Source: a virus
Virus record (IMG/VR): IMGVR_UViG_3300020469_003886
Location: 1-64,000 of that record
DNA length: 64,000 nucleotides
Strand: one strand, 5' to 3'
Shown here piece by piece: positions 14,036-62,698 of the stretch (positions are counted from its first letter, which is position 1; each line of letters starts with the position of its first letter). The notes under the pieces are model-generated. The model did no database searches. It was not told where the DNA came from and saw only the letters and a program-made list of their open reading frames with translations. Made by a program: the position numbers and the translations under genes.

Positions 14036-14111
14036 TGGTGGAGGATAGCGGGATCGAACCGCTGACCTCCTGAATGCAAATCAGGCGCTCTCCCGGCTGA
14101 GCTAATCCCCC
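14036..14111 (-). tRNA. tRNA-Ala(TGC), CCA encoded
   Basis: Cloverleaf; anticodon arm CCTGA-TTTGCAT-TCAGG; G3:U70. Confidence 0.97.
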
Positions 14112-14749
14112 AGTTCATTATTAACCAATTTATTTATCTGCTCCACAAACCACGTGTATCCTTCTTTTCCAGGATGGCAATCATCTTTTGCCAATGGAAA
14201 GTCTCTTTGACATGTTTCAAAATCGATAGGCAAAAAATCAACGTTGTTAAACGGCAGTGTTGTTTCTCTTTGAGATGCTCTTGCATGATATTGTTTTTTA
14301 ACTTTGTCTTTTAGATAATAATCAGCATGATTAACATAACAAAGATATTGATTCAGCATATCGTAATCATCATGCATATATTTGTAATATGCTTCTGCTG
14401 TTTTTATAATTTTCATATCTGTAGGATGTTTGTAGTCTGGATAGAATTTTATTTTACCTGGTATATCCCATTCTACGTGATCTCCTGTACCATTTATTCC
14501 ACGTCTATGTGTATCTTGTAGAATACACCACCTATCCATATGAGTCCACAGCACAACAACTACATCAGACTTGTGAAAATCAAAGTTCATTATTTCCCAC
14601 CAAATTCTTTTAGTAGATGCTCCAGGTACTCCCATATTGACTAAACCCATATTCCATTTAGTGGCTAATTGACTAGGCCACGAGTCTTTAGGATTATCTA
14701 ATGCTGATCCCCATGTTACACTACACCCAAAAGTAACTAATCTATTCAT
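14102..14749 (-). CDS. SGNH/GDSL-like hydrolase; stop codon lies inside tRNA-Ala
   Basis: FGCSVTWG, NMGVPGAS, DDCHPG motifs. Confidence 0.7.
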   Translation of the reverse strand: MNRLVTFGCSVTWGSALDNPKDSWPSQLATKWNMGLVNMGVPGASTKRIWWEIMNFDFHKSDVVVVLWTHMDRWCILQDTHRRGINGTGDHVEWDIPGKIKFYPDYKHPTDMKIIKTAEAYYKYMHDDYDMLNQYLCYVNHADYYLKDKVKKQYHARASQRETTLPFNNVDFLPIDFETCQRDFPLAKDDCHPGKEGYTWFVEQINKLVNNELGD

Positions 14750-14964
14750 TTATTTTTTAAATCTTCTTCTAATTTTTTAAGTTTTTTATCTATCTTTTTA
14801 TTTAACTTATCAACCTGTTTGTTCAATTGTTTTAAATTTTCCATATATTCGTTAAATTTATTTAATGGTAACATGTTGTCAACTGTCTTAAATTGACTTT
14901 GCATGACTTTTTTAATATACAAAGGATGACGTTTTAAATCAATTAGGTTACTTGTTTTTTTCAT
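14746..14964 (-). CDS. small coiled-coil protein
   Basis: Coupled ORF with heptad-like C-terminus. Confidence 0.6.
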   Translation of the reverse strand: MKKTSNLIDLKRHPLYIKKVMQSQFKTVDNMLPLNKFNEYMENLKQLNKQVDKLNKKIDKKLKKLEEDLKNK

Positions 14965-15883
14965 ATACTCTTTTTACTACCTTACCAATATTTACTCTAT
15001 TATACATTTGATCTCTGTGGAATTGCTCCCATTGCCTATCACCAAGTGCAATATGTATACAGTTGCTTGGTGTTAAATTGTATGTTTCACAAACTTTTTG
15101 CTGTGCTACATTATATTTATTCCACTGATGGTCTGGTGTAAAATTACGCATTAATTCTAAACTAATTTGCGTGTTTAAATGACAACCATGTGACCAATCT
15201 GCTTGTAAGGCTAATCTATCTTTCCTTGCATCTGAATCGTATTCAACTGTTCCGTGTTTTGAAAAACGTATGCCGGCTCTGTAATCGCCTGTGCATAATC
15301 CTTTAGTAGTAGATAGAGCAACTTCTTGGATTGCTGGATGTGATAAATCTATATCAATTCCTTTGCAAGTTCCAAACCAAGCCATATCAACAAATACAGG
15401 AATACCCAATTCATAGGCTTGATCAAACATTTCTAACATTTGTTGGTGTTGTGATCCTGTACCACTGAACGGACAACTTATAATAACAGCATCACCTTTT
15501 GCTAACGGCTTATCATCAATAAAGTCATCATAAGACCAAGGATGAACATCTCTATTGTAAGGATATTCTCCTCTAAACATTCTTAATCTTAAACCTTGCT
15601 CAAGTATGTAATAGTGAAACTCGTCAAGTGATTGTGTAACTCCTATTGACGGAAATCTGTAGTTAAAACTATCTAAACCTTTGATAGAATTTAGTTTACT
15701 CGAACTCACCCAATCTGGATAAAAGTCTACAAATTCTTCTTGGCAATTTAGATTATCACTTCTTAAAATATTATTTAAGAAATTTTTATCTAATAGGTGT
15801 GTAGCAAATTCACCATTATAGATTGAGTTGCCATTTCTTTTGAACTCTGTGTTTGATTCTGTATACTGTGATTTTTCTGCCAT
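14948..15883 (-). CDS. PLP-dependent transferase-fold protein
   Basis: VFVDMAWFG and LSTTKG...RAG resemble the fold-type I PLP site. Confidence 0.6.
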   Translation of the reverse strand: MAEKSQYTESNTEFKRNGNSIYNGEFATHLLDKNFLNNILRSDNLNCQEEFVDFYPDWVSSSKLNSIKGLDSFNYRFPSIGVTQSLDEFHYYILEQGLRLRMFRGEYPYNRDVHPWSYDDFIDDKPLAKGDAVIISCPFSGTGSQHQQMLEMFDQAYELGIPVFVDMAWFGTCKGIDIDLSHPAIQEVALSTTKGLCTGDYRAGIRFSKHGTVEYDSDARKDRLALQADWSHGCHLNTQISLELMRNFTPDHQWNKYNVAQQKVCETYNLTPSNCIHIALGDRQWEQFHRDQMYNRVNIGKVVKRVYEKNK

Positions 15884-16914
15884 TACAGATTTACTACTTG
15901 CTTTTTATTTGTCATTCTATTGTAAAAATCTATACTGGCAAGATTTTTTGCTTTAGATTCACACATAATATCAAAGTCATCTGTAAATGTCCAAGCCCAT
16001 TCATTAACAGCATCATTCCAATAGTAATCAGAGTGTGCTCTCAGTTTTGCTTTCTTGTAGCCTTGCTCTAGTAGTTTACCAAAATCTGGCTTAATACTTG
16101 CAGGATGATTTGAAAGTAAATCTTCTCTGCTGACAGAATAGTGCATAGCAGGTCTTACGCCACGCCAACTATCTTGCACACGTTTGATACGATCATCATT
16201 TGGTTTTATGTATTCACCTGCACTGTGACACCAGTGATGATGTATGTCAACTACCAATGCAACATGTTTTTCAAGTTCTAGTGAAGCATCTAGTCCCCAC
16301 GCATTTTCATCATTCTCAATTGTAATTGTGTTACGTGCTTCTGGTGTGAGTCTTGGTAATGCATCAATAATGCCTTGCGGACCTTTACGACCAGATATGT
16401 GTACGTTAATTTTAAAGTCTTGGAACTTGCGACCATATCCCATCCAACGTGCCATGTTTACATGATACTCAAATTCTTCAATTGATCTATCTACAATATC
16501 ATCTGACACAGATGCCAACACAGTAAATTGTCCAGGGTGCATAGAAAGTCTTACATCATTTGCTCGAGCAAACTCACCAATTGGTGCAAAGTGTTTTTCA
16601 CAATAATCAATCACATCTGGTTTATCCCAAAAGTATTTCCATGATGCTTCAGTTGCCACTGGCAATACAGGAGATGATATACGAACCATTTTCAATTCAT
16701 CTGGTAGTGTTGCCACATACTTGACCAGTTCATGTACAGATGCAATATTATGTCGCATCAAATCCCATAGTCTTTCTTCTGCTTCCGATTTGTGTTCATT
16801 CAACCAACGCACAGTTGTTGCACGACAGTTCAATGGTTGTTCATGTTCTTTAAGTATTTTTGTCTTCAGTGTTTGATCTGAATGCATGTACTTGCAGGCA
16901 AAACCTAATTTCAT
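15883..16914 (-). CDS. uvsE: UV damage endonuclease
   Basis: LGFAC, RLSMHPGQFTVL, TIENDE, DIHHH, AHSDY, MCESKAK. Confidence 0.93.
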   Translation of the reverse strand: MKLGFACKYMHSDQTLKTKILKEHEQPLNCRATTVRWLNEHKSEAEERLWDLMRHNIASVHELVKYVATLPDELKMVRISSPVLPVATEASWKYFWDKPDVIDYCEKHFAPIGEFARANDVRLSMHPGQFTVLASVSDDIVDRSIEEFEYHVNMARWMGYGRKFQDFKINVHISGRKGPQGIIDALPRLTPEARNTITIENDENAWGLDASLELEKHVALVVDIHHHWCHSAGEYIKPNDDRIKRVQDSWRGVRPAMHYSVSREDLLSNHPASIKPDFGKLLEQGYKKAKLRAHSDYYWNDAVNEWAWTFTDDFDIMCESKAKNLASIDFYNRMTNKKQVVNL

Positions 16915-17375
16915 AACTTTCCTAACTTTTTAACTCTTCGTTGATGTCTACCGCCTTCAAAGTCTGTTGTAAAAAATGTTTTTACAATTTTCTTTGCTTG
17001 ACTCATTGTTGTAAAGTCTGCTCCTAAGCATAACACATTTGCATTGTTATGTCTACGAGCCATTTCGGCTTCTTTTGGTGTTCTACATACTACAGCTCTG
17101 ATATCTTTAAATCTGTTGGCCGCAATGCTAACACCATACCCAGAACCACACACTAGTATACCATGAGAGTATATATCAAAACTTTTGCCAAACTCTTTTA
17201 CTACATCTGGATAGTCAACTGATTTATCTGCTTCGTGTGGTTTTAGATTCTGTATTACTGATACGTCAAATTTTGTTTCGCCATTTACATCATCTGGTGA
17301 TATAAAGTCTAATAAATTGTGTTTCATTTCTAGGCCTCTATGATCAGAGCCCATAATAAGATCAATTGTTTTCAT
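16911..17375 (-). CDS. rpiB: ribose-5-phosphate isomerase B
   Basis: GSDHRG, DYPD, CGSGYGVSIAANR, HNNANVLCLG, FEGGRHQRRV. Confidence 0.95.
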   Translation of the reverse strand: MKTIDLIMGSDHRGLEMKHNLLDFISPDDVNGETKFDVSVIQNLKPHEADKSVDYPDVVKEFGKSFDIYSHGILVCGSGYGVSIAANRFKDIRAVVCRTPKEAEMARRHNNANVLCLGADFTTMSQAKKIVKTFFTTDFEGGRHQRRVKKLGKL

Positions 17376-17381
17376 ATTATT

Positions 17382-17409
17382 AGTATATAGCATTTTGTAA
17401 ATTTGTCAA
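17382..17409 (-). promoter_or_regulatory. sigma70-type promoter, probably leaderless
   Basis: TTGACA-N16-TATACT-N6-ATG. Confidence 0.75.
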
Positions 17410-17411
17410 GC

Positions 17412-17437
17412 GGAAACGCCAGTAAACTGACGTCCCC
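17412..17437 (-). terminator. hairpin downstream of the porin gene
   Basis: GGGACGTCAGT-TT-ACTGGCGTTTCC; weak U-tract. Confidence 0.5.
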
Positions 17438-17471
17438 TATTGATCAAGTTATGTTCTGATTATGGCCTAAA

Positions 17472-18395
17472 TTAGAACGTAAATTTAAGACCAGTTGAAT
17501 AACCGTCAGTATCTATAGTAGATCCTGTGTTATCTGTGTGCTGATATTCAGCATAAGTCGATAACGATTCAGTTATTCCGTACGATAATCCGGCAGTGTA
17601 GTATGCAGTTGAATCTTCAACTTTACCATAACCACCTGTAAGTTTTGCCTTACCTTTGGTATATGTAGCAACTACTTCATTGCCAGTCACATCTGTTGCG
17701 GCATCTTTTTCAGTATATGTGTAACCAATTGTTACAGGCATACCTAAAGATGAAACATCTGCGGTTATACCAACACCATAGTAATATATGTCATTGACTT
17801 CGTCACTTGACATACCACCTGATGCTGTTATTACGCCGGCGTCATATGTTACTGTACCTTCTGATACATCAACACCATCTTTACCAGTTGAGCCATCTAT
17901 TTTGACTAAACCGTCAAATGTAAGTTTACCTATATTGTTACTATAGGCAATTGTGTTTGTATCACGTGTGAACAAATTTTGATCAGCACTTGAACCATAC
18001 ACTTCAAATACATCTGTGTGACCACTTACATTTGTTGTAAATGGTGATGCTTGACGACCCGCTGACAACGATCCTACAGGACCAAAGTTTAGACCAACAA
18101 GGGCTAATCTTGAATCCAATGGATTATTGTTCGAATCATCAGTATCAACGCCAAGTTCAAGTTTAGCAAAGCCAGTTATGCCTTCACCAATACCTTCTTC
18201 AGCATCAATACCAATAAACGATGAGTTGTTTTCTGCTTTCATATATGAATTGCCACTTGAATTCTCATCATTGCTTAACTTATAGTTAATAGAACCGTAG
18301 ATGTTTACTTCGGCTTCTGCTTCACTACAAGCAGTCAATGAGAATACAGATGCAAGTGCAACTATGAATGCTATGCTTATATATTTTCTCATCAT
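17472..18395 (-). CDS. Gram-negative porin
   Basis: Signal peptide, VNIYGSI, amphipathic beta strands, terminal GLKFTF; AGGAGG SD. Confidence 0.85.
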   Translation of the reverse strand: MMRKYISIAFIVALASVFSLTACSEAEAEVNIYGSINYKLSNDENSSGNSYMKAENNSSFIGIDAEEGIGEGITGFAKLELGVDTDDSNNNPLDSRLALVGLNFGPVGSLSAGRQASPFTTNVSGHTDVFEVYGSSADQNLFTRDTNTIAYSNNIGKLTFDGLVKIDGSTGKDGVDVSEGTVTYDAGVITASGGMSSDEVNDIYYYGVGITADVSSLGMPVTIGYTYTEKDAATDVTGNEVVATYTKGKAKLTGGYGKVEDSTAYYTAGLSYGITESLSTYAEYQHTDNTGSTIDTDGYSTGLKFTF

Positions 18396-18457
18396 TTCCT
18401 CCTTTTCTAATTCCTCTATGGAATTAATTTGCCAAGGCTATTAGCCTGGACTTAACA

Positions 18458-18486
18458 ACTATATACTAATAGTTGTATTCTGTCAA
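18458..18486 (-). promoter_or_regulatory. sigma70-type promoter for the porin
   Basis: TTGACA-N17-TATAGT; TTATCCACA at 18494-18502 just upstream. Confidence 0.7.
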
Positions 18487-18502
18487 TACATATTGTGGAT
18501 AA

Positions 18503-18757
18503 CTATTTTTTGTCTACTATATTTTGTGAGCCTCTAATCTCTAATTCTTTTTCTTCTTCTGATTGTGGCTTGGATGGTGAAACAATTTCTTCTACTATAT
18601 CCTTTGGATCTATTTCATTTGTTTCTAAAGCTCTTAAACATTCTGCTAAAGTTGGTCTTAGCCCCATTCTGTGCATCTTTGATGCAATTATCACTAATTC
18701 AAATTTTGATACATCTGGATTTGATTCCAAAACCGAATGTGCAAATACTCTTCCCAT
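18503..18757 (-). CDS. RNA polymerase omega (RpoZ)-like protein
   Basis: MGRV...SKFELVIIASK...PTL..CLRAL..NEI resembles alphaproteobacterial MARV...FELV...ALREI. Confidence 0.5.
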   Translation of the reverse strand: MGRVFAHSVLESNPDVSKFELVIIASKMHRMGLRPTLAECLRALETNEIDPKDIVEEIVSPSKPQSEEEKELEIRGSQNIVDKK

Positions 18758-18768
18758 ATATCTCCTTG

Positions 18769-19224
18769 TTATGCTTTTCTTATTGTAATACTTATCCTAG
18801 GTTCTTCCATATTTACAACTTGATGTGGTACTGCAATATTTATTTGGTACCATTGGTTAATATCTTCGTTAGTCCATGTCTTTTCATATATCATGTTATT
18901 TGGTTCATTAACATTATCCCACCAACGTGTTTTTACGTTTGAACCTCCTAGTGTAATTAAATAATTATATTTTGTTCCTATTATTCCAACATCTTCATGA
19001 ATTGGAAGATTTTGTCTCACAAGTTGATATCTTGTTTTAACAGGATAATCAAATTGCTGTTGACCCCACTCTTCTAAATTTTTTTGAGCAACATGACTTG
19101 AATAATGATCAGCATATTCTGGTTCAGGAAACACGTTTTCATATGATTCTATTTTTGCCAAATCATCTATCAAGTTTTGTGGAACTTGAGGAATATAATC
19201 TATTTTTTTACAAACTTTATTCAT
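18769..19224 (-). CDS. 2OG-Fe(II) oxygenase/cupin-like protein
   Basis: Start MNKVC after the tRNA; PIHED...PHQV...PRISI (HxD...H...RxS). Confidence 0.6.
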   Translation of the reverse strand: MNKVCKKIDYIPQVPQNLIDDLAKIESYENVFPEPEYADHYSSHVAQKNLEEWGQQQFDYPVKTRYQLVRQNLPIHEDVGIIGTKYNYLITLGGSNVKTRWWDNVNEPNNMIYEKTWTNEDINQWYQINIAVPHQVVNMEEPRISITIRKA

Positions 19225-19235
19225 TTTTTCTTTAC

Positions 19236-19311
19236 TGGTGCCGGCAGAGAGATTCGAACTCCCGACCTGACGATTACAAATCGCCTGCTCTACCAACTGA
19301 GCTACGCCGGC
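19236..19311 (-). tRNA. tRNA-Thr(TGT), CCA encoded
   Basis: Cloverleaf; anticodon loop TTTGTAA. Confidence 0.97.
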
Positions 19312-19330
19312 TCTGTTGTTATTTATTATA

Positions 19331-19352
19331 GAAGGGCACCGAAATGCCCTCC
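19331..19352 (-). terminator. GC-rich hairpin with TTCG loop
   Basis: GGAGGGCAT-TTCG-GTGCCCTTC. Confidence 0.65.
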
Positions 19353-19390
19353 TACTCGATATAGTTATTGTTGTTATTTGTAACGAGAGA

Positions 19391-19615
19391 TTACTTCTTG
19401 CCTCTGTTAGCGAGCCAATATATAACACCAATAGCAATTAATCCTACTACACCAGAATCACCAAGTGATCCAACTAGTGCAACAAGATTGCCGACAACGT
19501 CTGCTGGGAAAAACGGAACTGATCCGAATACCACCTGCAATACGATGCCAAGTAGTAAAAATGTTAATGCCAAGTCTGTAAGACCCGATAACACACTTTT
19601 AATTTTATCAAGCAT
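19391..19615 (-). CDS. 74-aa membrane protein (paralogue of 33988-34212)
   Basis: IVLQVVFG...DVVGN...GVVGLIA; AGGAGG SD. Confidence 0.8.
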   Translation of the reverse strand: MLDKIKSVLSGLTDLALTFLLLGIVLQVVFGSVPFFPADVVGNLVALVGSLGDSGVVGLIAIGVIYWLANRGKK

Positions 19616-19663
19616 AATGTTTCCTCCTTATGAATGATTGAACATTCTCTTGATCATTTAAAC

Positions 19664-19692
19664 AGTGTACTATTGATTATTTAAAATGTCAA
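19664..19692 (-). promoter_or_regulatory. sigma70-type promoter
   Basis: TTGACA-N17-TACACT. Confidence 0.7.
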
Positions 19693-19712
19693 CTATAAAA
19701 AGTTATGTTTTG

Positions 19713-20816
19713 TTAAAAATTTTGATGAGCAAATTTTAGATCTGGCCTTGACTCTAATGATTGTCCACATTTCTGGGCACATCTATGCAGTTTTGGATTA
19801 TTTTCGTCTTGCAATGTTTGGCCAAAACTATCCACAAGATTTTTTCCATACCATTCATTTTTTAATATTTGTTGTAATGAATGTGTGTTTACGTTGATAA
19901 ATTCTCTGCCATATTTTTTATATGTTTTAAAAATAAAGTCATTTGCTTCAGATCTTTTTGTCATATAAACACGTTGATACGTATAACAACAAGGAAATAT
20001 GTCTCCATTGGTAGCAAAGAACACTGCATTTTTTAAATTAGACCATTCGCAGTTTACTTTTTTGGCATTAAATTTTTCTAACATATTTTTCTTTTGTGTT
20101 TGCCAATCATGTGTTATCGAATGAGAACTGTTGTATTCTGTATCTTTAAATTTAGAAGGAACTTGAAACGTTTTTAAACTGTCATTAGGTTCTAATTCTC
20201 TACCACCGTTATTAGGTGAAACTGTAAAAGTAGCAAATTTCATTTTCTTAGCCAAATCTCTTGCTTGATCAATTTGATGTTTATTGTGTTCAAATTTAAT
20301 CATTTTCCAATGTGCTTTTCCGCCAGCATCAATAAATGCTTGAGCATTTTCAATAATTTTATCCCACTTGGTCATTCTTCTGTATAGATGATTCGTATCT
20401 TCTAGTCCATCAATTGAAAAAGCAATATAATTTTCTTCGTTAAAACTCATTAACTTACCAAGATCTTTCCAATAGTTAGGTGTTCTTAGACTTGCATTTG
20501 TGTTAGCACTAACAATAATTTTAGGATTCTTTTTTGCAATCCATTCAACTGTATCTAAAAAAATGCTACTTGCTAATGGATCACCAAACACAGGTGTGTG
20601 ATCAATTCTATAAACTTTTGACAAAGACCATTTATCAAACATTTTTTCCCATGTTTCAAACTTCATGTCTGCTTCAAAAGGCATATAAGGATTTAAGTAT
20701 TGTCCTTTTGCTCGATTTTCATCAACTCTAGCACACATAGGACACATGGCATTACATTTAGTTGTAAGTTCTACCTGTATTTCTATTGGCTTGTCTAAAT
20801 TAAGATATGATGTCAT
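19713..20816 (-). CDS. radical SAM protein with C-terminal SPASM/twitch domain
   Basis: CNAMCPMC; SIDG; GDIFPCC...CAQKCG. Confidence 0.9.
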   Translation of the reverse strand: MTSYLNLDKPIEIQVELTTKCNAMCPMCARVDENRAKGQYLNPYMPFEADMKFETWEKMFDKWSLSKVYRIDHTPVFGDPLASSIFLDTVEWIAKKNPKIIVSANTNASLRTPNYWKDLGKLMSFNEENYIAFSIDGLEDTNHLYRRMTKWDKIIENAQAFIDAGGKAHWKMIKFEHNKHQIDQARDLAKKMKFATFTVSPNNGGRELEPNDSLKTFQVPSKFKDTEYNSSHSITHDWQTQKKNMLEKFNAKKVNCEWSNLKNAVFFATNGDIFPCCYTYQRVYMTKRSEANDFIFKTYKKYGREFINVNTHSLQQILKNEWYGKNLVDSFGQTLQDENNPKLHRCAQKCGQSLESRPDLKFAHQNF

Positions 20817-22329: not shown

Positions 22330-22349
22330 TGTGTACTCCTACTTTATAT

Positions 22350-22601
22350 TTATCGCTTTAACATAGGATATATATCTTTTACTTTGGTTCTATATGCTAG
22401 TGTATCTGCACTATACCCCATTTGTGCTATGTCTTTGCGTTTTTTACGTGCATTTTTAAAAATTTTACCAAATGGATCAACTGCTTTGATTGCCTGTGCG
22501 TGTGTAGTACCAGGTGTCACTGGAAAAGCAAGTGTGGCTATATTACCACTTGCTGTTGACCCTGCTGTTGCATCTTCTGTGATGATATCTATAATACGCA
22601 T
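22350..22601 (-). CDS. putative internal head protein
   Basis: MRIIDIITE N-terminus; TATAAATA 5 nt upstream. Confidence 0.65.
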   Translation of the reverse strand: MRIIDIITEDATAGSTASGNIATLAFPVTPGTTHAQAIKAVDPFGKIFKNARKKRKDIAQMGYSADTLAYRTKVKDIYPMLKR

Positions 22602-22606
22602 AACAT

Positions 22607-23869: not shown

Positions 23870-23882
23870 TAGAAGTTATCCT

Positions 23883-36648: not shown

Positions 36649-36885
36649 TTATAAATTGAGTTGGTATCTTAGTTGCCAACGTTCTAACATCAACTTGTCC
36701 ATTTGGTCTTGGCTCTCATAACTAGATTTATGAGCAAGTTCTTGTATTTCAGCTTCTACCTGTATCAAACGTTGTTTTTTAGGATTCTTAGTTTGTTTAG
36801 ATGGTTGTTGGTCATAGTGTTTTACACTATTATTTGGTTTTGTATTCGTATTACGTTTCTGTATGTTTTTGCGTCTATATATCAT
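36649..36885 (-). CDS. hypothetical basic protein
   Basis: ORF starting 6 nt after the tRNA CCA. Confidence 0.6.
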   Translation of the reverse strand: MIYRRKNIQKRNTNTKPNNSVKHYDQQPSKQTKNPKKQRLIQVEAEIQELAHKSSYESQDQMDKLMLERWQLRYQLNL

Positions 36886-36891
36886 AATTTG

Positions 36892-36967
36892 TGGCTCCGC
36901 AGGCAGGACTCGAACCTGCGACCAATTGATTAACAGTCAACTGCTCTACCAACTGAGCTACTGCGGA
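36892..36967 (-). tRNA. tRNA-Asn(GTT), CCA encoded
   Basis: Cloverleaf; anticodon loop CTGTTAA. Confidence 0.97.
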
Positions 36968-37233
36968 ATAATATGAGCCTGAACTGTATTTGTTTCTTCA
37001 TCGTATAACACATCAATTAATCTTCCTGTTCTACGACTTACAATAAATGGCATCATTTTGTGTTGACTATTTTCATAAACAACATCAACATCACAGTAGT
37101 ACATCTTATCTATTCCTTGCTTTGCAAGTTCATCCTCAACACATTCGCGACAACGTCTTTGACGAATCAAAAGTGTAATATCAATGATATCTAAATTATT
37201 TTCTTCTGCCATAATGAGTGTAACTTTGTACAC
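36958..37233 (-). CDS. hypothetical protein; stop codon lies inside tRNA-Asn
   Basis: ORF after TAAATA; start uncertain (GTG 37233 or ATG 37212). Confidence 0.6.
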   Translation of the reverse strand: MYKVTLIMAEENNLDIIDITLLIRQRRCRECVEDELAKQGIDKMYYCDVDVVYENSQHKMMPFIVSRRTGRLIDVLYDEETNTVQAHIIPQ

Positions 37234-37252
37234 TATTATTTAGCAAAAAAAA

Positions 37253-45826: not shown

Positions 45827-45901
45827 TGGCATTCCCTAGGAGAATCGAACTCCTCTTTCCTGGATGAAAACCAGGTGTCCTAACCGATAGACGAAGGGAA
45901 C
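45827..45901 (-). tRNA. tRNA-Glu(TTC), CCA encoded
   Basis: Cloverleaf; CCTGG-TTTTCAT-CCAGG. Confidence 0.96.
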
Positions 45902-54608: not shown

Positions 54609-54614
54609 ATGTTT

Positions 54615-54643
54615 ATTATACTTGTTTTATTTGAAATAATCAA
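54615..54643 (-). promoter_or_regulatory. sigma70-type promoter, probably leaderless, heading the GT/MTase/rSAM run
   Basis: TTGATT-N17-TATAAT-N6-ATG. Confidence 0.7.
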
Positions 54644-54827
54644 GAGGAAATGAATAAATTCCTAATATTTCTATGTCTGGGTGTGCTAGTTTAATTAGAA
54701 CAAATTGCTCATCTGTTACAGCAATAATATTATCTGCATGATTAGGAATATATGTTCTTGGTAAACTTTTGTCTTTTGCTAACCGATTGTGTTTAGTTTG
54801 GTCTGTATATCCAACTAAGGTGTACAC
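54627..54827 (-). CDS. hypothetical protein
   Basis: GTG start coupled to the clpP stop. Confidence 0.5.
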   Translation of the reverse strand: MYTLVGYTDQTKHNRLAKDKSLPRTYIPNHADNIIAVTDEQFVLIKLAHPDIEILGIYSFPLDYFK

Positions 54828-55408
54828 TACCTTTTTTCAACAATTTTATCAATTAGACCAAATTCTAATGCTTGATCTGGATTCATGTAATTATCACGTT
54901 CCATTGCATCTTCAACTGTTTTAAGATCTTTGCCACAGTGTTTTACATACAAATCATTTAATCTTTTCTTTGTGTCTAAAATGTCTTTTGCATGAATTTC
55001 AATATCTGTTGCTTGTCCTTGGAATCCTGCTGATGGTTGGTGTATCATTATTTTTGAATTTGGTAATGATATCCTTTTGCCGGCTGTACCTGCCATTAAT
55101 AATAATGATCCTGCACTTGCTGATAAGCCAATACTTACTGTTGAAATATCTGGTTGTACATATTGCATAGTATCATACATTGCCAATCCTGCTGTTACAG
55201 AACCGCCTGGCGAATTAATATACATGTAGATATCCTTATCTTTAGATTCAGATTCTAAAAACAATAACTGAGCACAAACCAAACTTGATGTTGCATCATT
55301 TATTGGACCAGTAATAAAAATAATTCTTTCTTTTAATAAACGTGAAAAAATATCATAACTTCTTTCACCTCTTGACGATTGTTCAACAACCATTGGTACT
55401 AGATTCAT
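54827..55408 (-). CDS. clpP: ATP-dependent Clp protease proteolytic subunit
   Basis: [33 protein letters not shown]; AAGGAG SD. Confidence 0.97.
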
Positions 55409-55418
55409 ATTCATCTCC

Positions 55419-56915
55419 TTAGACATTAAATTCAACTCCTTGTGCTAATGGCAAGTCTGTTGAGTAATTTACCGTTACTGTGCTTCTACGCATGTATTGT
55501 TTCCATGCATCTGAACCACTTTCTCTTCCACCTCCAGTGTGTTTTTCACCACCAAAGGCGCCGCCAATTTCAGCCCCACTAGGACCAATATTAACATTTA
55601 CAATACCACAATCAGATCCATTTGCTCCAATAAACAATTCTGCTTCTTGTAAATCTTTTGTAAAGATACAACTGCTTAAACCTTGTGGTACGTTATTGTT
55701 AATTGCTATTGCTTCTGCTAGTTCATCATATGGCATGATGTAAAGCAATGGTGCAAAAGTTTCTGTTTTTGTAATTTCTTCTGCTTTAGTTAATTCAACT
55801 ATTGCTGGTGTTACATATACCCCATCACGTTCTAATTTTGTTCCGCCAGTAACAGTTCCAATACCTTGTTGCTCACATTGTGCCATTGTGTCTTTCATAT
55901 TTTCATATGCTTGTTCACTAACCAAAGGTCCTACTAATGTGTTGCTGTCTAAAGGATCACCAACTGTAATTTTTGCGTAATATTTTTTAAGAATTTTTAC
56001 CAACTGTTCGTGAATTGATCTATGCACAATAACTCTACGTAATGTTGTACATCTTTGACCTGCTGTACCTACTGCACTAAACAATATAGCTCTAATTGCC
56101 AACTTCATATCTGCATTTGGTGTAACTATCATTGCATTGTTGCCACCAAGTTCCATCAGCACTCTACCAAATCTTTCAGTAACTTGTTTACCTAATGTTT
56201 GCCCCATTGCTGTTGATCCTGTTAGTGAAACAAGATTAATATGTTTATCATTTGCTAACCATTCTGCAGGTTCGTTAGCACCTACAACAAGTTCTAATAT
56301 GTTTTGTGCTTGGGGTATGCCAGAACGTTCAACTGCTTTTTTAAATATTGCCTCACAAGCATAAGATACCAAAGGTGTCTTAGGTGACGGCTTCCAAAGT
56401 GTTGTGTTACCACACACTGTTGCAATAGCAAAGTTCCAACTCCACACTGCTACAGGAAAGTTAAATGCTGAAACAACTCCAACTACTCCTAATGGATTCC
56501 ACATCTCTTGCATACGGTGTCCTGGTCTTTCACTTGGCATTGTTAATCCGTATAACTGTCTTGATAATCCAACTGCGAAATCGCAGATATCTATCATTTC
56601 TTGTACTTCACCTAAACCTTCTTGAAATATTTTACCGTTTTCGATAGTAACTAATTTCCCAAGTTCGTTTTTGTGCTTACGAAGTTCTTCACCAAACAAT
56701 CTAATTACTTCACCTCTTTGTGGTGCTGGAATTGTTCTCCATTCTATTTGTGCTTGTTTTAAATTTAGTACCTTTGCTTCATACTCTTGTTTAGTAGTAT
56801 GTTTTACTGTGGCAATTTCAGTAGCATCGATTGGGGATACTACTGAGTTGCCATTTGGTACTGTATATAAGTTTTGATCTACGCCTATAGATTCTAATAT
56901 TTGTTTTACATTCAT
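55419..56915 (-). CDS. aldehyde dehydrogenase family 7 (aminoadipate-semialdehyde/P6C dehydrogenase type)
   Basis: [44 protein letters not shown]. Confidence 0.92.
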
Positions 56916-56918
56916 AAA

Positions 56919-57137
56919 TTAACTTTTAAAATATTTTTCAATAACTTCTATTTGATCATGATATTTTGCAATAACTTCTAATTCCTTTTCAATTGCTTCT
57001 AAAATATCAGGATGCTCACCTACGCCAGCCGCGTTTGATAGATAAACTTCAACGTTCATTGAATGTTTAGCAATGTGTCCTTTTGCGTGTTCTATTACTG
57101 CTTCTAACATATTTTCTCTACTATATAAACCTGCCAT
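56919..57137 (-). CDS. small hypothetical phage protein
   Basis: GVGEHPDI motif; AGGAG SD. Confidence 0.7.
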   Translation of the reverse strand: MAGLYSRENMLEAVIEHAKGHIAKHSMNVEVYLSNAAGVGEHPDILEAIEKELEVIAKYHDQIEVIEKYFKS

Positions 57138-57247
57138 TGTTTTTCTCCTATGCAATAAATGGTTTTACCTATCACACCGGACATGTAGACCTTTAAAAGT
57201 GCCTACGCCAATATAATTATTATATACTATTTATTTGAAAAGTCAAG

Positions 57248-57556
57248 TTAAATTCCTAATGCTAATCTGGCCTCTTCACTCATCATATCTTGAGAAAAAG
57301 GTGGATCAAATGTTGTTTCAATAAAACAGGAATCAACTCCTTCAACATCCATAGCCGCATGTTTGATATCTGCTACAATTTGGTCTGCCGCTGGACAAAA
57401 TGCTGATGTTAATGTATGTGTGATACAAGCCTTTGGTAGTTCTGATAGATCAATATTATATATCAATCCAAGATCATAAATGTTGATAGATATTTCAGGA
57501 TCATACACTTCACGTAAGTTTTCAATAATTTTTTCTTTTGTTTGGTCTGGGGTCAT
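57248..57556 (-). CDS. sufT: SufT/DUF59 Fe-S assembly protein
   Basis: VYDPEI...DLGLIY...TLTSAFCP...FDPP. Confidence 0.88.
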   Translation of the reverse strand: MTPDQTKEKIIENLREVYDPEISINIYDLGLIYNIDLSELPKACITHTLTSAFCPAADQIVADIKHAAMDVEGVDSCFIETTFDPPFSQDMMSEEARLALGI

Positions 57557-58122
57557 ACTGCTTCAACTGTATGTACTTCTGAGATGTAATGTTTTAACAT
57601 ATTTTCAATGCCCATTTTGAGAGTTGCTGTCGAGCTCGGACAGCCTGAACAAGCACCATACATTTCTAAATACACAGTTCCATTTTCAAAACTGTGAAAA
57701 ATAATATCTCCGCCATCCATTGCTACTGCTGGTCTTACACGTTCATCAAGTAGTTGGACTATTTTTTTTGTGATTTTATCTGTACCTGCATCATCATTAA
57801 TTGTTTCACAAGCAGGTTTTGTTTCTTCAACAATAAATGGTCCTTCACTGTGATATCTAATTGTTTCTGTAATATCGCTTTTGATATCTTCCCATTCTAC
57901 TGTGTCGTCTTTACCTACTGTAATAAAGTCTGACCCAAAAAATACATCTTGTATTCCATTTATTTTAAACAGTGCGTATGCCACAGGAGCATCTGCAGAT
58001 GGATTACCTTCAGGATCTTTTTTATAAAAAAGTGGTGTTTTGTTGCCTCTGACATCTACGTTAGGTAAGAATTTTAAAGCATTTGGATTTGGGGTTAATT
58101 CTGTTTGTATCATCATTTCCAT
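57553..58122 (-). CDS. nfuA: Nfu/NifU-type Fe-S carrier
   Basis: TPNPNALKF; VRPAVAMDGGDI; GACSGCPSS. Confidence 0.92.
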   Translation of the reverse strand: MEMMIQTELTPNPNALKFLPNVDVRGNKTPLFYKKDPEGNPSADAPVAYALFKINGIQDVFFGSDFITVGKDDTVEWEDIKSDITETIRYHSEGPFIVEETKPACETINDDAGTDKITKKIVQLLDERVRPAVAMDGGDIIFHSFENGTVYLEMYGACSGCPSSTATLKMGIENMLKHYISEVHTVEAV

Positions 58123-58129
58123 ATTATTT

Positions 58130-58157
58130 ATTATAGTTGTTTTAATGTTTTTGTCAA
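58130..58157 (-). promoter_or_regulatory. sigma70-type promoter, probably leaderless
   Basis: TTGACA-N16-TATAAT-N7-ATG. Confidence 0.75.
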
Positions 58158-58160
58158 GTA

Positions 58161-59126
58161 TTATTTTAATTTTGATTCAAATTCTCTCAAACGTTTGTAT
58201 ACACTTGCAAGTTCAATAATAGTAGGCCATGCTTTTAATAGATATTGCATTGATCCTTCAACTCTTCCAAATGCTCTTATGATTTGTTGCATCACACCAA
58301 GTGTAACAACACCTGCTACAATGGCTGGTGCTAAAAATACATAAGCACTTAAAACGTTTGCTTGTAAATATGCCATACGTCCTACGTTAAAATACAAATA
58401 ACGTACATAACTTTTAAAGTGAATACTACGAACATCTGCAAACAGTTCATCAATTTTTTTTGGTCTTACATTTCCATCGTCTTCTGCAATAACTAATATT
58501 TTTCTGTATGCCGCTTCTTGTTTTTGAAGATCATATTCTACACCAACTAGTCGTAATACCCAACCTAGTCCTATTAAAAATATTGTTCCACCAAGTGTCC
58601 AAACTAATGCACCTGTAATTAATCCATATTGCCAATCACCAAAAAAGAAAATTGGTATTCCAATTGATAATCCAAACAGTATAGGTATAAATTGTATTAA
58701 TATCATTACTGCTTCAATTAGACTTGTGCCTAGTGATTCCATAATACGTGAAAATTTAACTGTGTCTTCTTGTACCCTTTGTGATGCACCTTCTATTTTT
58801 CGTGCTTTGTCATAAACACTGTGATACCACTCAACCATTGCTGTTCTCCAACGGAATAAAAAATGTGCTGTAAAGAAACTTATTAAAACATAAAGTCCAA
58901 CATACATACCTGCTAAAGTAATAAAAGAAAGAAGGCTTGCAAAATACTCTTCGATTGTAATTGCATTTGGTTCTGCAAGTGCTTTTTGTATCATATCATA
59001 AAAAACACCAAACCATTCGTTAATTTTTACGTCAATTTCTACTTGGACCCACAATGAAGATAAAATAATTGCTGATCCGAGCCATGCCCACAATAACCAC
59101 TTTCTGGTTGTAAAGAATCTAAACAT
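58161..59126 (-). CDS. sbmA: SbmA/BacA peptide transporter
   Basis: FYDMIQKAL, FRWRTAM, IEGASQRVQEDT, EAAYRK. Confidence 0.9.
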   Translation of the reverse strand: MFRFFTTRKWLLWAWLGSAIILSSLWVQVEIDVKINEWFGVFYDMIQKALAEPNAITIEEYFASLLSFITLAGMYVGLYVLISFFTAHFLFRWRTAMVEWYHSVYDKARKIEGASQRVQEDTVKFSRIMESLGTSLIEAVMILIQFIPILFGLSIGIPIFFFGDWQYGLITGALVWTLGGTIFLIGLGWVLRLVGVEYDLQKQEAAYRKILVIAEDDGNVRPKKIDELFADVRSIHFKSYVRYLYFNVGRMAYLQANVLSAYVFLAPAIVAGVVTLGVMQQIIRAFGRVEGSMQYLLKAWPTIIELASVYKRLREFESKLK

Positions 59127-59127
59127 A

Positions 59128-59439
59128 CTAGGCTTTTTCTACTGTACAGTTCAATGGATGACCTTGCGATCTAGCCTGTGCTGTAGTTTCAATTGCTTTT
59201 TGTTCTGCAATTTCGTGTGTGAATGTTCCGGCAACACCTTTGCCTTCTTCGTGAATCTGCATCATTACTGCTTCAGCGTCTTTTGGAGATTTTCTAAAAA
59301 TTGTTTTTAAAATTTCTGTAACAAAATCCATTGGTGTGTAATCATCATTCAACAAATACACATTAAACATACTAGGCTCATCTATTGTTGTCTTTGTACT
59401 TGTTGACGCTTGTACGTTTGCATTTCCTTGTTCTGTCAT
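59128..59439 (-). CDS. clpS: Clp protease adaptor ClpS
   Basis: LLNDDYTPMDFV, IHEEGKG, HPL. Confidence 0.95.
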   Translation of the reverse strand: MTEQGNANVQASTSTKTTIDEPSMFNVYLLNDDYTPMDFVTEILKTIFRKSPKDAEAVMMQIHEEGKGVAGTFTHEIAEQKAIETTAQARSQGHPLNCTVEKA

Positions 59440-59448
59440 TTTTTATCC

Positions 59449-60015
59449 TTATTGTATTTTATCTATTATTATTGCATCTGGCATGATATAAGGAACATAT
59501 TCTTGTCTATCTTCTCTATCGTTACCTTGATGAACTTCCATTTGCTCTTTACCTTGATCTTCTTTAATCAAATTAATTGGCATTGGTTGTCCTTTTCTCA
59601 TTTCTTCCATTTTTGCAACTTGTTCATGCATTTCTCTATTGTATTGTATAACATAAACACGAGGTTGTCTACCATTAATTGTGTATGCTACAATATCTAC
59701 CCAAGATTTTCCTTTTACATCCTTATTGTTGTCTATCAACCAAAGATATATTGCACCAGATCCTGGTTCTTTTATTTCTGGTTCTTCAACAAACGACCCA
59801 ATCATTATATATTTTTCGTTGTTTGGCCAATCATGATATGGATATCCATACATTGTTTTTAATCCTATCCAAGCACTAAGAATTGAAAACAATACTAATG
59901 TAGTAAGTGTGGCTTTTAAATACCATTTTGTTGTTGATGATGATATAAATATCCAAAGAACTGTTGCACCAATCAACATTAATAATAAAACTAAAAATAC
60001 GTGTCCTTGTATCAT
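59449..60015 (-). CDS. membrane protein, third gene of the MotA-like module
   Basis: Two N-terminal TMs, IYLW, PRVY; GGGAGG SD before MIQG. Confidence 0.7.
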   Translation of the reverse strand: MIQGHVFLVLLLMLIGATVLWIFISSSTTKWYLKATLTTLVLFSILSAWIGLKTMYGYPYHDWPNNEKYIMIGSFVEEPEIKEPGSGAIYLWLIDNNKDVKGKSWVDIVAYTINGRQPRVYVIQYNREMHEQVAKMEEMRKGQPMPINLIKEDQGKEQMEVHQGNDREDRQEYVPYIMPDAIIIDKIQ

Positions 60016-60016
60016 T

Positions 60017-60685
60017 CTATAATCCTCCCGGGCTCCATGCACCAGAGTTTGCATCTACTAATTTTCCAACTATTCCATAATTTAAAGTGTTGAAATTACT
60101 GACTGAGCCATCTTCATTTACTGTAAACCTTACCACTGTTGTCTCTACACCTTTTCTATCTAAATTTACTTCTCTTGCATACACAACATTATATGGATTT
60201 ATTTTTTCAACTTGTACTTGAATTGGTAAAGGCACATAGTTCTTTTCACCCATTTGCTCTACAGCAATTTTTTTGTTGTACCAATGCACATTAACAATGT
60301 ATTCGCCAGGTACTATACCTCTTATAGTAACCATTTCTTCATTTCTAAAGACAGTAATTATTTCTCCTTTTGGACCGTACACTGTATCATTTGATGTTCC
60401 TAAATCATCTCTACTAAGACTCATTAATCCAACGTCTTTTGATTTAAATCCTACGTAATTTCCCAAAGGATCTCTCATCCATAAGTCAACATCAGACGGT
60501 GAATCTGATGGCCAATTAATTTTTACAATAAATTCTGCAACCACTTCAACATTTGATTTTTTTGCTACTGGGTTGATTAATATAAATGCCATAACAAACA
60601 AAAATACAAAGCCAACAAGTGTATTGAATAATAGATCTATGAATGCTACCTGTGAACCGTAACTACGATGACGATTGGTTGCCAT
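60017..60685 (-). CDS. MotB/ExbD-like single-TM protein with unusual periplasmic domain
   Basis: AFIDLLFN TM with Asp; DVDLWMRDP, DDLG, GEYIVNVHWY. Confidence 0.65.
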   Translation of the reverse strand: MATNRHRSYGSQVAFIDLLFNTLVGFVFLFVMAFILINPVAKKSNVEVVAEFIVKINWPSDSPSDVDLWMRDPLGNYVGFKSKDVGLMSLSRDDLGTSNDTVYGPKGEIITVFRNEEMVTIRGIVPGEYIVNVHWYNKKIAVEQMGEKNYVPLPIQVQVEKINPYNVVYAREVNLDRKGVETTVVRFTVNEDGSVSNFNTLNYGIVGKLVDANSGAWSPGGL

Positions 60686-60686
60686 T

Positions 60687-61250
60687 TTAGTTACCTTTCT
60701 GCTCTACAACTCGCTCAACTAATTTTTCTGCTTGTAATGTTCTATAACGTTCTAGATCTTGATCTAATCTAAAGTATTGAACTTTAAGAATTGTACTTGT
60801 AATCAAACCTGTTAGGGTTGTATATAATGCTGTTGACATGCCAACTGCCATACTTGCTAATGCAGTTTGTACCGATGAAACGTTTGCAATATTAATTCCT
60901 GTAAAAGCACCTGCCAACATGAGAATAAACCCTGCTACTGTTCCTATCAAACCAAGTGTTAGTAGTACATCTGATGCAAACCAACCTGGTTCGTGTCTTG
61001 TATCTAAATTTTCTAATTTGTGTAACTCGCCATTTGCAAGTTGGCTTAATTTCCAACTTTCATACCCACAATGTAATGTCATTGAATAAAATATAAAAAG
61101 AATAAAAAATGATAATTTAGTTTTGTCGTTTGTCCATAAATCTTCGTGTACACCAAAACCTACTAAAACAACTGTCAATGCTATAATAAGTGTAAAGAAC
61201 CACCACCATTTAAGAAATATACTGTGTTTAGTTAATGATTTAATTGCCAT
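60687..61250 (-). CDS. MotA/TolQ/ExbB proton channel family protein
   Basis: LGLIGTVAGFI...GMSTALYTTLTGL. Confidence 0.85.
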   Translation of the reverse strand: MAIKSLTKHSIFLKWWWFFTLIIALTVVLVGFGVHEDLWTNDKTKLSFFILFIFYSMTLHCGYESWKLSQLANGELHKLENLDTRHEPGWFASDVLLTLGLIGTVAGFILMLAGAFTGINIANVSSVQTALASMAVGMSTALYTTLTGLITSTILKVQYFRLDQDLERYRTLQAEKLVERVVEQKGN

Positions 61251-61290
61251 GAGCCTCTTTTCCTAATACTACAATTATTTATCGTATTAA

Positions 61291-61323
61291 GAGAAACCCC
61301 GGCTGTGTTTACCGGGGTTCCGC
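61291..61323 (-). terminator. intrinsic terminator after hsp20
   Basis: GGAACCCCGG-TAAACACAG-CCGGGGTTTC-TCTT. Confidence 0.75.
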
Positions 61324-61346
61324 ATAAAGTAGTGTGTTAATTAAGA

Positions 61347-61787
61347 TTACTTAATATCAATAGTTTTTGGCTTTTTGTTCTCTGGAATAATTCTTTCCAT
61401 AGATACTCTAAGCAAACCATCTTTAAGTTCAGCACCTTTTATTTCTACATCATCTGCAATCGTAAATGCTTTTGTAAATTGTCTTTTAGAGATTCCTTTG
61501 TGGATAACTCCGTCTGTAGACTCTTTATCTTCATCAGATTTTACAGATTTAATAGTAAGTGTATTTTCAGCATACTCTACATTGATGTCTTTTTTGCTAA
61601 AACCAGCAAGTGCGACTTCAATATCGTAGGTATTATCACCTGTTCTTACAATATTGTAAGGTGGGTAATTTACTGTGGGTGCTGTGAAAACGTCACCTTC
61701 AAACATTCTTTCAAAATGGTCAAAAACGTCATCAAACCCAATAGTTACAGGACGTAACTGATTAAAAATAGATAGATTTCTTGTCAT
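61347..61787 (-). CDS. ibpA: small heat shock protein (Hsp20/IbpA)
   Basis: NYPPYNI, IEVALAGF, HKGISKRQF, LKDGLL. Confidence 0.95.
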   Translation of the reverse strand: MTRNLSIFNQLRPVTIGFDDVFDHFERMFEGDVFTAPTVNYPPYNIVRTGDNTYDIEVALAGFSKKDINVEYAENTLTIKSVKSDEDKESTDGVIHKGISKRQFTKAFTIADDVEIKGAELKDGLLRVSMERIIPENKKPKTIDIK

Positions 61788-61847
61788 AATAACTCCTCCT
61801 TTAAAGCAAGTTGTTTTAATGTAGATCCTATCAAAGCAATCTACATG
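61788..61847 (-). promoter_or_regulatory. ROSE-like RNA thermometer in the hsp20 leader
   Basis: 5' hairpin ATGTAGAT...ATCTACAT, then UUGCU opposite AGGAGG; TATAAATA and TTGACT/TATAAT upstream. Confidence 0.6.
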
Positions 61848-61911
61848 TGTATTTATACAGTTTTTTACTGTATGTATATTATATAAGCATGAATTTTAAA
61901 AAGTCAAGAGT

Positions 61912-62160
61912 CTAAGAGGATTTTTTTTCTATTTTATCTGAAAAAAGTTCAATATGTTGTCCTGGACCTGTTTTGCTTGGCAAATCACCATATGTTTCTG
62001 CATATTTTTTTATCACTTCTATGTAGAATACAGTAGAATTATGATGACATTTTTTATTAATTTCTGATAGTCCATTGTTTGTACCATCAATGTGTGTTGC
62101 TAGAGCTCTTGCGGCTTCTTTTTGTAGTGTACGTAAATCTAATGTTTCTAATTCTATCAT
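61912..62160 (-). CDS. hypothetical protein
   Basis: ORF after tRNA-Asp. Confidence 0.65.
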   Translation of the reverse strand: MIELETLDLRTLQKEAARALATHIDGTNNGLSEINKKCHHNSTVFYIEVIKKYAETYGDLPSKTGPGQHIELFSDKIEKKSS

Positions 62161-62172
62161 ATTATTTCTTTC

Positions 62173-62249
62173 TGGCGGGAGTGAAGGGACTCGAACCCTC
62201 GGCCTTCCGCGTGACAGGCGGACGCTCTAACCAACTGAGCTACACCCCC
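62173..62249 (-). tRNA. tRNA-Asp(GTC), CCA encoded
   Basis: Cloverleaf; TCCGC-CTGTCAC-GCGGA. Confidence 0.97.
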
Positions 62250-62251
62250 AA

Positions 62252-62327
62252 TGGTGGGTAATACAGGACTCGAACCTATGACCCTCTCGGTGTAAACGAG
62301 ATGCTCTACCAACTGAGCTAATCACCC
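62252..62327 (-). tRNA. tRNA-Val(TAC), CCA encoded
   Basis: Cloverleaf; TCTCG-TTTACAC-CGAGA; 2 nt from tRNA-Asp. Confidence 0.97.
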
Positions 62328-62698
62328 TTGATGTCAATTTCTGTTAATCCTCGTTCTCTATTTAAATACTTATATTCAACCTTGGTAGGATCAAATTGTT
62401 TAATTTCTTCAAATATTATATCTGTAGGTAAATCACCACAAGTATAGACATCAAGTTGTAATAACCCAGGATCTGTTTCATCCCAACAATGCAATGCTAT
62501 GTGAGAAGTTTCAATAATTACTAAACCAGTTAAGCCCCTGTTACCTGGCATATCTAAATATGTTGTAATAGGACCTTGACATATTTGCATACCAATTTTA
62601 GATACTAAATCTGTTAACCAAGTGTGAGCCCACTTCTGATTAGTAGGTGGCTTATTAACTTCGGCTCTTACTATTAGATGTTTGTGTTGTACCGTCAT
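62318..62698 (-). CDS. speD: S-adenosylmethionine decarboxylase proenzyme; stop codon lies inside tRNA-Val
   Basis: HKHLI, GLTG..IIETSHIALH, QLDVYTCG. Confidence 0.85.
   Translation of the reverse strand: MTVQHKHLIVRAEVNKPPTNQKWAHTWLTDLVSKIGMQICQGPITTYLDMPGNRGLTGLVIIETSHIALHCWDETDPGLLQLDVYTCGDLPTDIIFEEIKQFDPTKVEYKYLNRERGLTEIDIKGD

Follow-up and report, generated by a model that had tools for sequence, protein, structure and literature searches.

Stop codons of three genes lie inside the downstream tRNA genes in a fragment of an uncultured marine jumbo phage

We analyzed protein genes that run into tRNA genes in IMG/VR virus record IMGVR_UViG_3300020469_003886, specifically in its first 64 kb (positions 1 to 64,000; hereafter the "window", i.e., the whole stretch of DNA examined). 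Three genes, encoding an SGNH/GDSL-like hydrolase, a conserved protein of 84 amino acids (aa) from an open reading frame (ORF) that we call ORF84, and S-adenosylmethionine decarboxylase (speD), each end on a TAG formed by positions 8–10 of the tRNA gene that follows. At these junctions, the same bases serve both gene and tRNA, there is no room for a promoter or terminator between the two, and the histories of the overlaps can be followed among relatives. These comparisons indicate a recurrent origin, through the loss of a stop codon or through a gene landing beside a tRNA. We consider it rather probable that the overlaps are a by-product of tight packing against co-directional tRNAs, with one frozen and conserved case.

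The record is 92,102 bp long and estimated to be ~24% complete, has a GC content of 33%, and carries all of its genes, and all of its features located below, on the minus strand. Under a simple ORF model, ~92% of the record is coding, 33 of its 123 gene–gene junctions overlap (27%), and another 41 have spacers of 0–20 nucleotides (nt). PHROG and tblastn matches are phage-type (cytidyltransferase, tail fibre/baseplate-like proteins, DNA ligase, and radical-SAM proteins), and the nearest cultured relatives of its speD are found in Pelagibacter podophages. Among its close relatives in IMG/VR are G004, a complete phage of 328 kb bearing terminal repeats, and the fragments G001, G002, G003, and G005, which together place the record as a fragment of an uncultured marine jumbo phage.

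ARAGORN located 7 tRNAs at 6 loci in the window (8 in the whole record), and Rfam model RF00005 confirmed all 7 with the same 5′ ends. The three overlapped tRNAs scored 65.8 (Ala), 75.2 (Asn), and 68.9 bits (Val) against a 29-bit cut-off, aligned to model positions 1–71, and have their 5′ ends at 14111 (tRNA-Ala(UGC), 14036–14111), 36967 (tRNA-Asn(GUU), 36892–36967), and 62327 (tRNA-Val(UAC), 62252–62327). The SGNH gene (215 aa, 14102–14749) stops at 14102–14104, ORF84 (36958–37212) at 36958–36960, and speD (126 aa, 62318–62698) at 62318–62320; none has an earlier in-frame stop, and each stop is a complete TAG lying wholly within the tRNA, not an incomplete T or TA. Each overlap measures 10 nt, tRNA positions 1–10 also encoding the end of the protein, i.e., ..G-D-stop for SGNH (14102–14111), ..(I)-P-Q-stop for ORF84 (36958–36967), and ..(K)-G-D-stop for speD (62318–62327), such that the final residues encoded by the acceptor strand are ..L-G-D, ..I-P-Q, and ..K-G-D, respectively. 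At each junction the two features share a strand and no spacer separates them, and the genes 3′ of the tRNAs begin 7–15 nt past the tRNA CCA end. An original prediction made from the sequence had described these three overlaps of exactly 10 nt, at 3 of the 6 tRNA loci, and both statements were confirmed by ARAGORN, Rfam, and the ORFs; only the start listed for the second gene (GTG at 37233, yielding 91 aa) needs correction, as homologues indicate that it is most likely ATG 37212.

All three overlapping ORFs are judged to be real genes because speD matches Pfam family PF02675 (8.7e-14), homologues of the SGNH protein form 24 clusters and it has sub-threshold GDSL matches, and those of ORF84 form 33 clusters that vary synonymously. 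As a stop codon, TAG is not unusual in this record: it terminates 20 of 124 genes, and a suppressor tRNA was not found among the record's tRNAs.

The length of exactly 10 nt is dictated by the tRNA sequence and is uninformative by itself, because in most tRNAs a ribosome reading that frame meets no stop before the TAG at positions 8–10: this was the case for 6 of the 8 tRNAs in the record and for 298 of 543 tRNAs in a control set drawn from 117 unrelated IMG/VR loci and retrieved by a generic D-arm pattern. A gene could come to abut a tRNA without a stop of its own through a point mutation, a deletion, or the insertion of a new gene cassette. Translation would then continue for two or three codons into the 5′ acceptor strand, and in one of the three frames the near-universal U8-A9-G10 would be the first stop reached. 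The price would be no more than a few arbitrary residues at the C-terminus (GD, PQ, or KGD), and such junctions would therefore arise repeatedly and be hard to undo.

For speD, relatives preserve both states of the junction. In the window and in G001, the gene ends ..AAG-GGT-GAT-TAG, while in G002 and G003 (96% and 90% protein identity) it ends ATT-TAG-GGT-GAT-TAG, the first of these stops overlapping tRNA-Val by 1 nt. A TAG at the same codon overlaps tRNA-Ile by 2 nt in G004, G005 has a TAA followed by a 16-nt spacer and tRNA-Ala, and in more distant speD relatives the stop is at this codon too, either without a tRNA behind it or separated from one by a spacer. From this shared position, the stop at that codon is read as ancestral, and the 10-nt overlap as a single T-to-A stop loss at what is now an AAG codon (62327–62329; TAG in G002, G003, and G004), extending the protein by K-G-D into the tRNA. 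We note that in G002 and G003 (TA|G) and in G004 (T|AG), a speD mRNA cut by RNase P would end in UA or U; the completion of such ends by bacterial poly(A) addition would be pure speculation.

A fourth, independent junction was found next to this one in G001. There, an iron–sulfur assembly cassette consisting of sufB (482 aa) and a truncated sufD-like gene (191 aa) lies, with a tRNA-Lys, between tRNA-Val and tRNA-Asp (L025:1203-3226), and the sufD-like gene terminates on the TAG at positions 8–10 of tRNA-Asp. The same two tRNAs are only 2 nt apart in the window, where tRNA-Asp(GUC) (62173–62249) is the second of the Val–Asp pair and is not overlapped.

The SGNH/tRNA-Ala junction is also recent, because the C-terminal tail of the protein is unique to this genome. 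Tails of 17 SGNH homologues vary in both sequence and length, the closest homologue (88% identity) ends ELEKLDKDTK where the window protein ends ELGD, and the window tail ..NNELGD was found in no homologue compared. Searching viral contigs with the single SGNH protein returned no loci, and with an alignment only distant SGNH relatives. In G004, tRNA-Ala is followed by an IscS/SufS-like gene (83% identity; the cysteine desulfurase gene at 12819–14024 in the window), and the SGNH gene is not upstream. The position that SGNH occupies in the window is instead taken in G004 by a 158-nt RNase P RNA-like sequence (327918–328075; L200:1501-1658) that ends at the first base of tRNA-Ala. This sequence matches RF00010 with 73.6 bits (E 5e-22, model positions 1–367), below the Rfam cut-off of 100 bits, with the conserved core intact (GAGGAAAGUC, ACAGAAUCC, and GGGUAGG). 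We considered whether the SGNH 3′ end could be a remnant of this RNA, given the shared AGATAAAT and AATGAAC, and rejected this since the similarity is accounted for by the conserved codons for E-Q-I-N and N-E-L. No RNase P RNA was found in the 92-kb record itself, which at ~24% completeness is uninformative for the whole phage.

The ORF84/tRNA-Asn junction has a different history. A search of viral contigs with the single ORF84 protein returned nothing, and one with an ORF84 alignment returned only G004, in which an identical overlap with tRNA-Asn is found at ~52% protein identity. Among 37 metagenome loci, 35 carry the exact 10-nt overlap with tRNA-Asn(GUU) at 94–47% protein identity, and the remaining two are cut by contig ends but share the same junction sequence. 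The A-H-I-I codons just upstream of the junction vary synonymously (GCT/GCC/GCA, CAT/CAC, ATT/ATC), and the ORF84 tail is therefore under selection at the protein level. The block formed by phosphoribosyl pyrophosphate (PRPP) synthetase, ORF84, tRNA-Asn, and a 78-aa gene is syntenic throughout, with PRPP synthetase 81–98% identical, and the clade is therefore fairly shallow. The simplest view of the ORF84/tRNA-Asn pair is that its overlap is frozen, being difficult to take apart, in a block of conserved synteny.

Two database homologues of ORF84, P0032 and P0033, have frame-shifted C-termini, one of them crossing the tRNA in another frame to end ..GRAVDC at the TAA of the anticodon loop; this is probably an assembly error and illustrates how long the tail would be in the other frames. 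On the other side of tRNA-Asn, the 78-aa gene begins 7 nt (6 intervening bases) past the CCA end (36885–36900), and a GGAG of the tRNA 3′ acceptor strand lies 9 nt, i.e., at Shine–Dalgarno distance, before its ATG at 36885. From this arrangement, tRNA-Asn may supply translation signals on both of its sides.

The ORF84 product is acidic (isoelectric point, pI, of 4.7) and consists of a helix and, after it, a beta-sheet; its C-terminus, AHIIPQ, is conserved. No match was obtained in Pfam or PHROG and no relative among GenBank phages. An AlphaFold model (predicted local distance difference test score, pLDDT, of 78.5) had no Foldseek match at E ≤0.001, and VIA-align returned generic helix-on-sheet (alpha+beta) matches with Z ≤6.6. 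A Sm/Hfq-like fold was considered and is unsupported by this structure comparison, and an ArfA-like identity was rejected based on the pI, the lack of a Pfam match, and the absence of a basic C-terminal tail.

Next, we evaluated how the overlapped genes and tRNAs may be transcribed. No terminator-like sites and no strong sigma-70-like sites were found at the three junctions, with counts of sigma-70-like sites at the level of shuffled sequence. The motif TAAATA has 68 copies on the coding strand of the record, of which 26 lie 0–40 nt upstream of ORF starts (~5% expected by position), and it is found within 60 nt upstream of 4 of the 8 tRNAs. The late promoter of phage T4 is TATAAATA, which TAAATA resembles, and the motif is probably a late-type promoter element of this clade. 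Upstream of the ORF84 ATG (37213–37242), TAAATA (37237–37242) is followed by a small hairpin (37217–37234), and TAAATA with a hairpin of 6–9 bp is located just upstream of the ATG in all relatives (L040-L076). The position of the hairpin is kept while its sequence changes between relatives, and single-sequence folds show it in most of them; RNAalifold gave no consensus structure for this 5′ region, for which the MAFFT alignment was out of structural register. This element is likely the promoter and 5′ region of an ORF84–tRNA-Asn transcription unit, and could be either a late-promoter/translation-control arrangement or a protein-binding palindrome. No promoter-like motif was detected within 60 nt upstream of tRNA-Asn. 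Contigs from RNA libraries of two studies reach only 37218 and 37221, and one spans 36892–37218, i.e., the whole of tRNA-Asn and ORF84; as assembled contigs, they fit a unit in which the mRNA forms the tRNA 5′ leader but cannot show, let alone prove, RNA ends.

Counting such overlaps against a null model, as the original prediction had suggested, gave an answer that depends on the background chosen. In the control set, 13 of 543 tRNAs were preceded by an open frame of at least 80 codons ending at TAG 8–10, and ~6 of these are credible ATG-initiated ORFs once frames lacking an ATG in GC-rich contigs and frames crossing tRNA arrays are dropped. Against this background, the binomial probability of observing at least 3 of 8 is ~7e-5 to 7e-4, an excess over unrelated loci, whereas against the genome's own 27% rate of gene–gene overlap 3 of 7 is not elevated (P ~0.29). 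The window was, moreover, selected post hoc out of a very large scan, which makes these p-values too favorable.

The credible control cases in unrelated phages involve mobile or accessory genes, namely one homing endonuclease each of the GIY-YIG and HNH types and cyanophage cpeT. In cpeT (174 aa), the stop is TAG 8–10 of the tRNA that opens an array, as observed in five cyanophages in GenBank that span four genera of Kyanoviridae (S-RSM4, NC_013085; S-WAM2, NC_031935; S-CAM4, KU686200; ACG-2014j, NC_062735; S-H9-1, NC_070961) and in one IMG/VR cyanophage contig. With the GenBank coordinates of the tRNA, the overlap amounts to 10 nt, and ARAGORN places the start of tRNA-Asp one base earlier. 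Both the coding sequence (CDS) and the tRNA are annotated in S-RSM4, S-WAM2, and S-CAM4, while S-H9-1 lacks the cpeT CDS and ACG-2014j the tRNA annotation, the overlap being seen in these two through ARAGORN and the open frame. These T4-like cyanophages resemble the present case in that they are marine and the stop of an accessory metabolic gene falls on TAG 8–10, but the gene and the phage family are unrelated.

Packing as the explanation accounts for most of this evidence but not for all of it. Extreme compaction, originally offered as a second explanation, fits the ~92% coding density, the 27% of overlapping gene junctions, the speD stop loss, and the unique SGNH tail, but not the conservation of ORF84/tRNA-Asn; likewise, the overlap proved not to be conserved in orthologues of speD and SGNH, but it is conserved for ORF84. 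A series of points weighs against a purely passive origin. The overlap is present in all 36 complete ORF84 relatives, i.e., the 35 metagenome loci keeping the exact 10 nt down to 47% identity together with G004, and no earlier stop has been gained in any of them, a stability that, on these comparisons, exceeds the prediction for a purely neutral accident. The frequency of 3 in 8 tRNAs is far above the ~1–2% seen in unrelated phage contigs, and cpeT keeps its overlap although the tRNA that follows differs (Asp or Thr). The clade may also invest in tRNA 5′ processing, as suggested by the miniature RNase P RNA-like gene of G004. The RNA data, finally, are assembled contigs, whose ends and uncovered parts are uninformative on processing.

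These points raise the alternative that a coupling between translation and tRNA processing has been selected, at least in the conserved pairs (ORF84/tRNA-Asn and cpeT/tRNA). If gene and tRNA share one transcript, full-length protein would come only from the uncut precursor, on which the ribosome would terminate at the UAG of positions 8–10. An RNase P cut at +1 would free the tRNA and leave the upstream mRNA stop-less with an unprotected 3′ end, exposed to stop-less translation, rescue by transfer-messenger RNA (tmRNA), and rapid 3′ decay. The mRNA would in effect be the 5′ leader of the pre-tRNA, and cleavage, possibly boosted by a phage mini RNase P RNA, would act as a timer or limiter through which protein output falls as the tRNA matures; conversely, translation running into the acceptor stem would hold up the release of the tRNA. 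The logic of the original prediction, that a cut at +1 removes the stop codon, is sound, but no evidence was found for selection of the overlap as a timer or down-regulator. In favor of such a coupling are the persistence of the ORF84 overlap beside synonymously changing codons, an ORF84 unit with its own conserved TAAATA and hairpin beside a tRNA-Asn with no promoter-like motif within 60 nt, the RNA-library contig covering exactly ORF84 and the tRNA, the retention of the cpeT overlap with two different tRNAs, the enrichment over unrelated phages, and the RNase P RNA-like gene of G004, albeit below the Rfam cut-off. Conversely, the speD and SGNH junctions are both recent and a single base switches the speD one between its two states, the conservation of ORF84 is found within a fully syntenic block of a shallow clade in which an overlap would be intrinsically hard to undo, and G004, the very phage bearing the RNase P-like RNA, has only one such overlap among its 15 tRNAs.

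A bacterial case also bears on this coupling. In Escherichia coli secG-leuU, the RNase P cut at tRNA +1 separates the mRNA, which is then degraded exonucleolytically in <30 s, although secG has its own stop codon, followed by a 14-nt spacer, with no promoter or terminator between gene and tRNA (Mohanty and Kushner, PMC2241853). Our junctions share with it a protein gene immediately followed by a tRNA in the same orientation and the lack of an intervening promoter or terminator; they differ in that the secG stop precedes the spacer, while here the stop is 10 nt inside the tRNA and would be removed by cleavage as well. As RNase P thus destabilizes any mRNA immediately upstream of a tRNA even without overlap, the overlap may add little: it would impose stop-less translation and rescue by tmRNA on a message that decays in any case. 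Taken together, we regard selected coupling as possible but unlikely, and continue to favor packing.

Another alternative is that the overlap exists at the DNA level only, with little consequence for RNA. Most tRNA transcription would then start at dedicated promoters lying within the 3′ ends of the preceding ORFs, such that tRNA supply is independent of mRNA cutting. Copies of TAAATA, the motif enriched upstream of ORF starts, are indeed located within SGNH 19 nt before the +1 of tRNA-Ala (14131–14136) and within speD 31 nt before that of tRNA-Val (62359–62364), and several non-overlapped tRNAs in the clade have TAAATA or TATAAT 6–14 nt before +1 and probably have promoters of their own. In the window, tRNA-Thr (19236–19311) has a TAAATA ending 8 nt and a TATAAT 13 nt upstream of +1, and tRNA-Gly (4442–4516) has a 49-nt upstream spacer with TTGACA (4550–4555), a 17-nt spacing, and TATAAT (4527–4532). 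The latter is a perfect sigma-70 consensus directly upstream of the tRNA, with the −10 element ending 10 nt before +1. tRNA-Glu (45827–45901), also not overlapped, has TCG instead of TAG at positions 8–10, and the 72-aa ORF upstream of it stops 8 nt before +1. The two intragenic copies of TAAATA, however, coincide with conserved peptide motifs encoded by AT-rich codons (Q-I-N in SGNH and L-N-R in speD), so that they are possible internal promoters or may be incidental to these codons. In addition, tRNA-Asn has no such motif within 60 nt, and nothing terminates the upstream mRNAs before the tRNAs, so that read-through mRNAs would still be cut. We therefore find independent transcription of the tRNAs an improbable explanation.

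An artefact, in which the ORFs are not genes or truly end elsewhere through sequencing error, frameshift, or another genetic code, is highly improbable: assembly errors do occur in this family, as in P0032 and P0033, but independent assemblies share the junctions (G001 for speD; 35 metagenome loci and G004 for ORF84), all three ORFs have Pfam or homologue support, and TAG is a normal stop here without a suppressor tRNA.

The favored account, tight packing with one frozen case, has a known parallel in mitochondria, where protein genes abut or overlap tRNAs on a polycistronic transcript and tRNA excision sets the mRNA 3′ end (Ojala-type tRNA punctuation). Compaction is the accepted cause of these mitochondrial overlaps, in which genes mostly end in a partial stop codon (T or TA) that polyadenylation extends to UAA. 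The present junctions are alike in that protein genes abut or overlap tRNA genes that are presumably on the same transcript, and differ in that a complete TAG at positions 8–10 would be lost on cleavage and that the host of the phage is a tmRNA-bearing bacterium. The speD genes of G002, G003, and G004, overlapping by 1–2 nt (TA|G or T|AG), are closer in form to the mitochondrial case. A second comparison is arfA-type regulation, in which RNA processing removes the stop codon and the amount of product depends on tmRNA activity. It shares with the coupling proposed here the removal of a stop codon by RNA processing, but ORF84 is acidic and not a small basic rescue factor, and speD and SGNH encode ordinary enzymes. 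Among viruses, the coordinate table of the archaeal Halorubrum virus BJ1 lists ORF42 at 19803–19982 and tRNA-Phe at 19973–20046, a 10-nt overlap (PMC2194725) equal to those described here, but in an archaeal virus and known from table coordinates alone. This kind of overlap is hence already known from mitochondria and is present, uncommented, in published phage annotations; our literature search found no paper discussing stops within tRNAs in phages, which does not prove that none exists.

For annotation, these results matter because gene callers and curators often forbid overlaps between CDSs and tRNAs, so that genes beside phage tRNAs may be truncated or dropped, as is the case for cpeT in S-H9-1. 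For genome evolution, they mean that the most conserved bases of a tRNA offer a ready-made stop codon, allowing an accessory gene to be inserted, or a spacer to be deleted, right up to the tRNA. A further-reaching view, which we consider doubtful, is that marine phages harbor a class of gene-then-tRNA units, exemplified by ORF84/tRNA-Asn and cpeT/tRNA, with their stop in U8-A9-G10 and RNase P as the off-switch. If so, each tRNA released would leave one stop-less mRNA targeted by tmRNA, protein output would be inverse to tRNA maturation, a mini RNase P RNA might supplement the enzyme in this clade, and these units would represent, in bacterial viruses, an equivalent of mitochondrial punctuation that also has a regulatory function. 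The competition between translation, RNase P, and tmRNA on a single RNA, settled for mitochondria and hardly examined in bacteria and phages, has simple natural cases in ORF84/tRNA-Asn and cpeT/tRNA.

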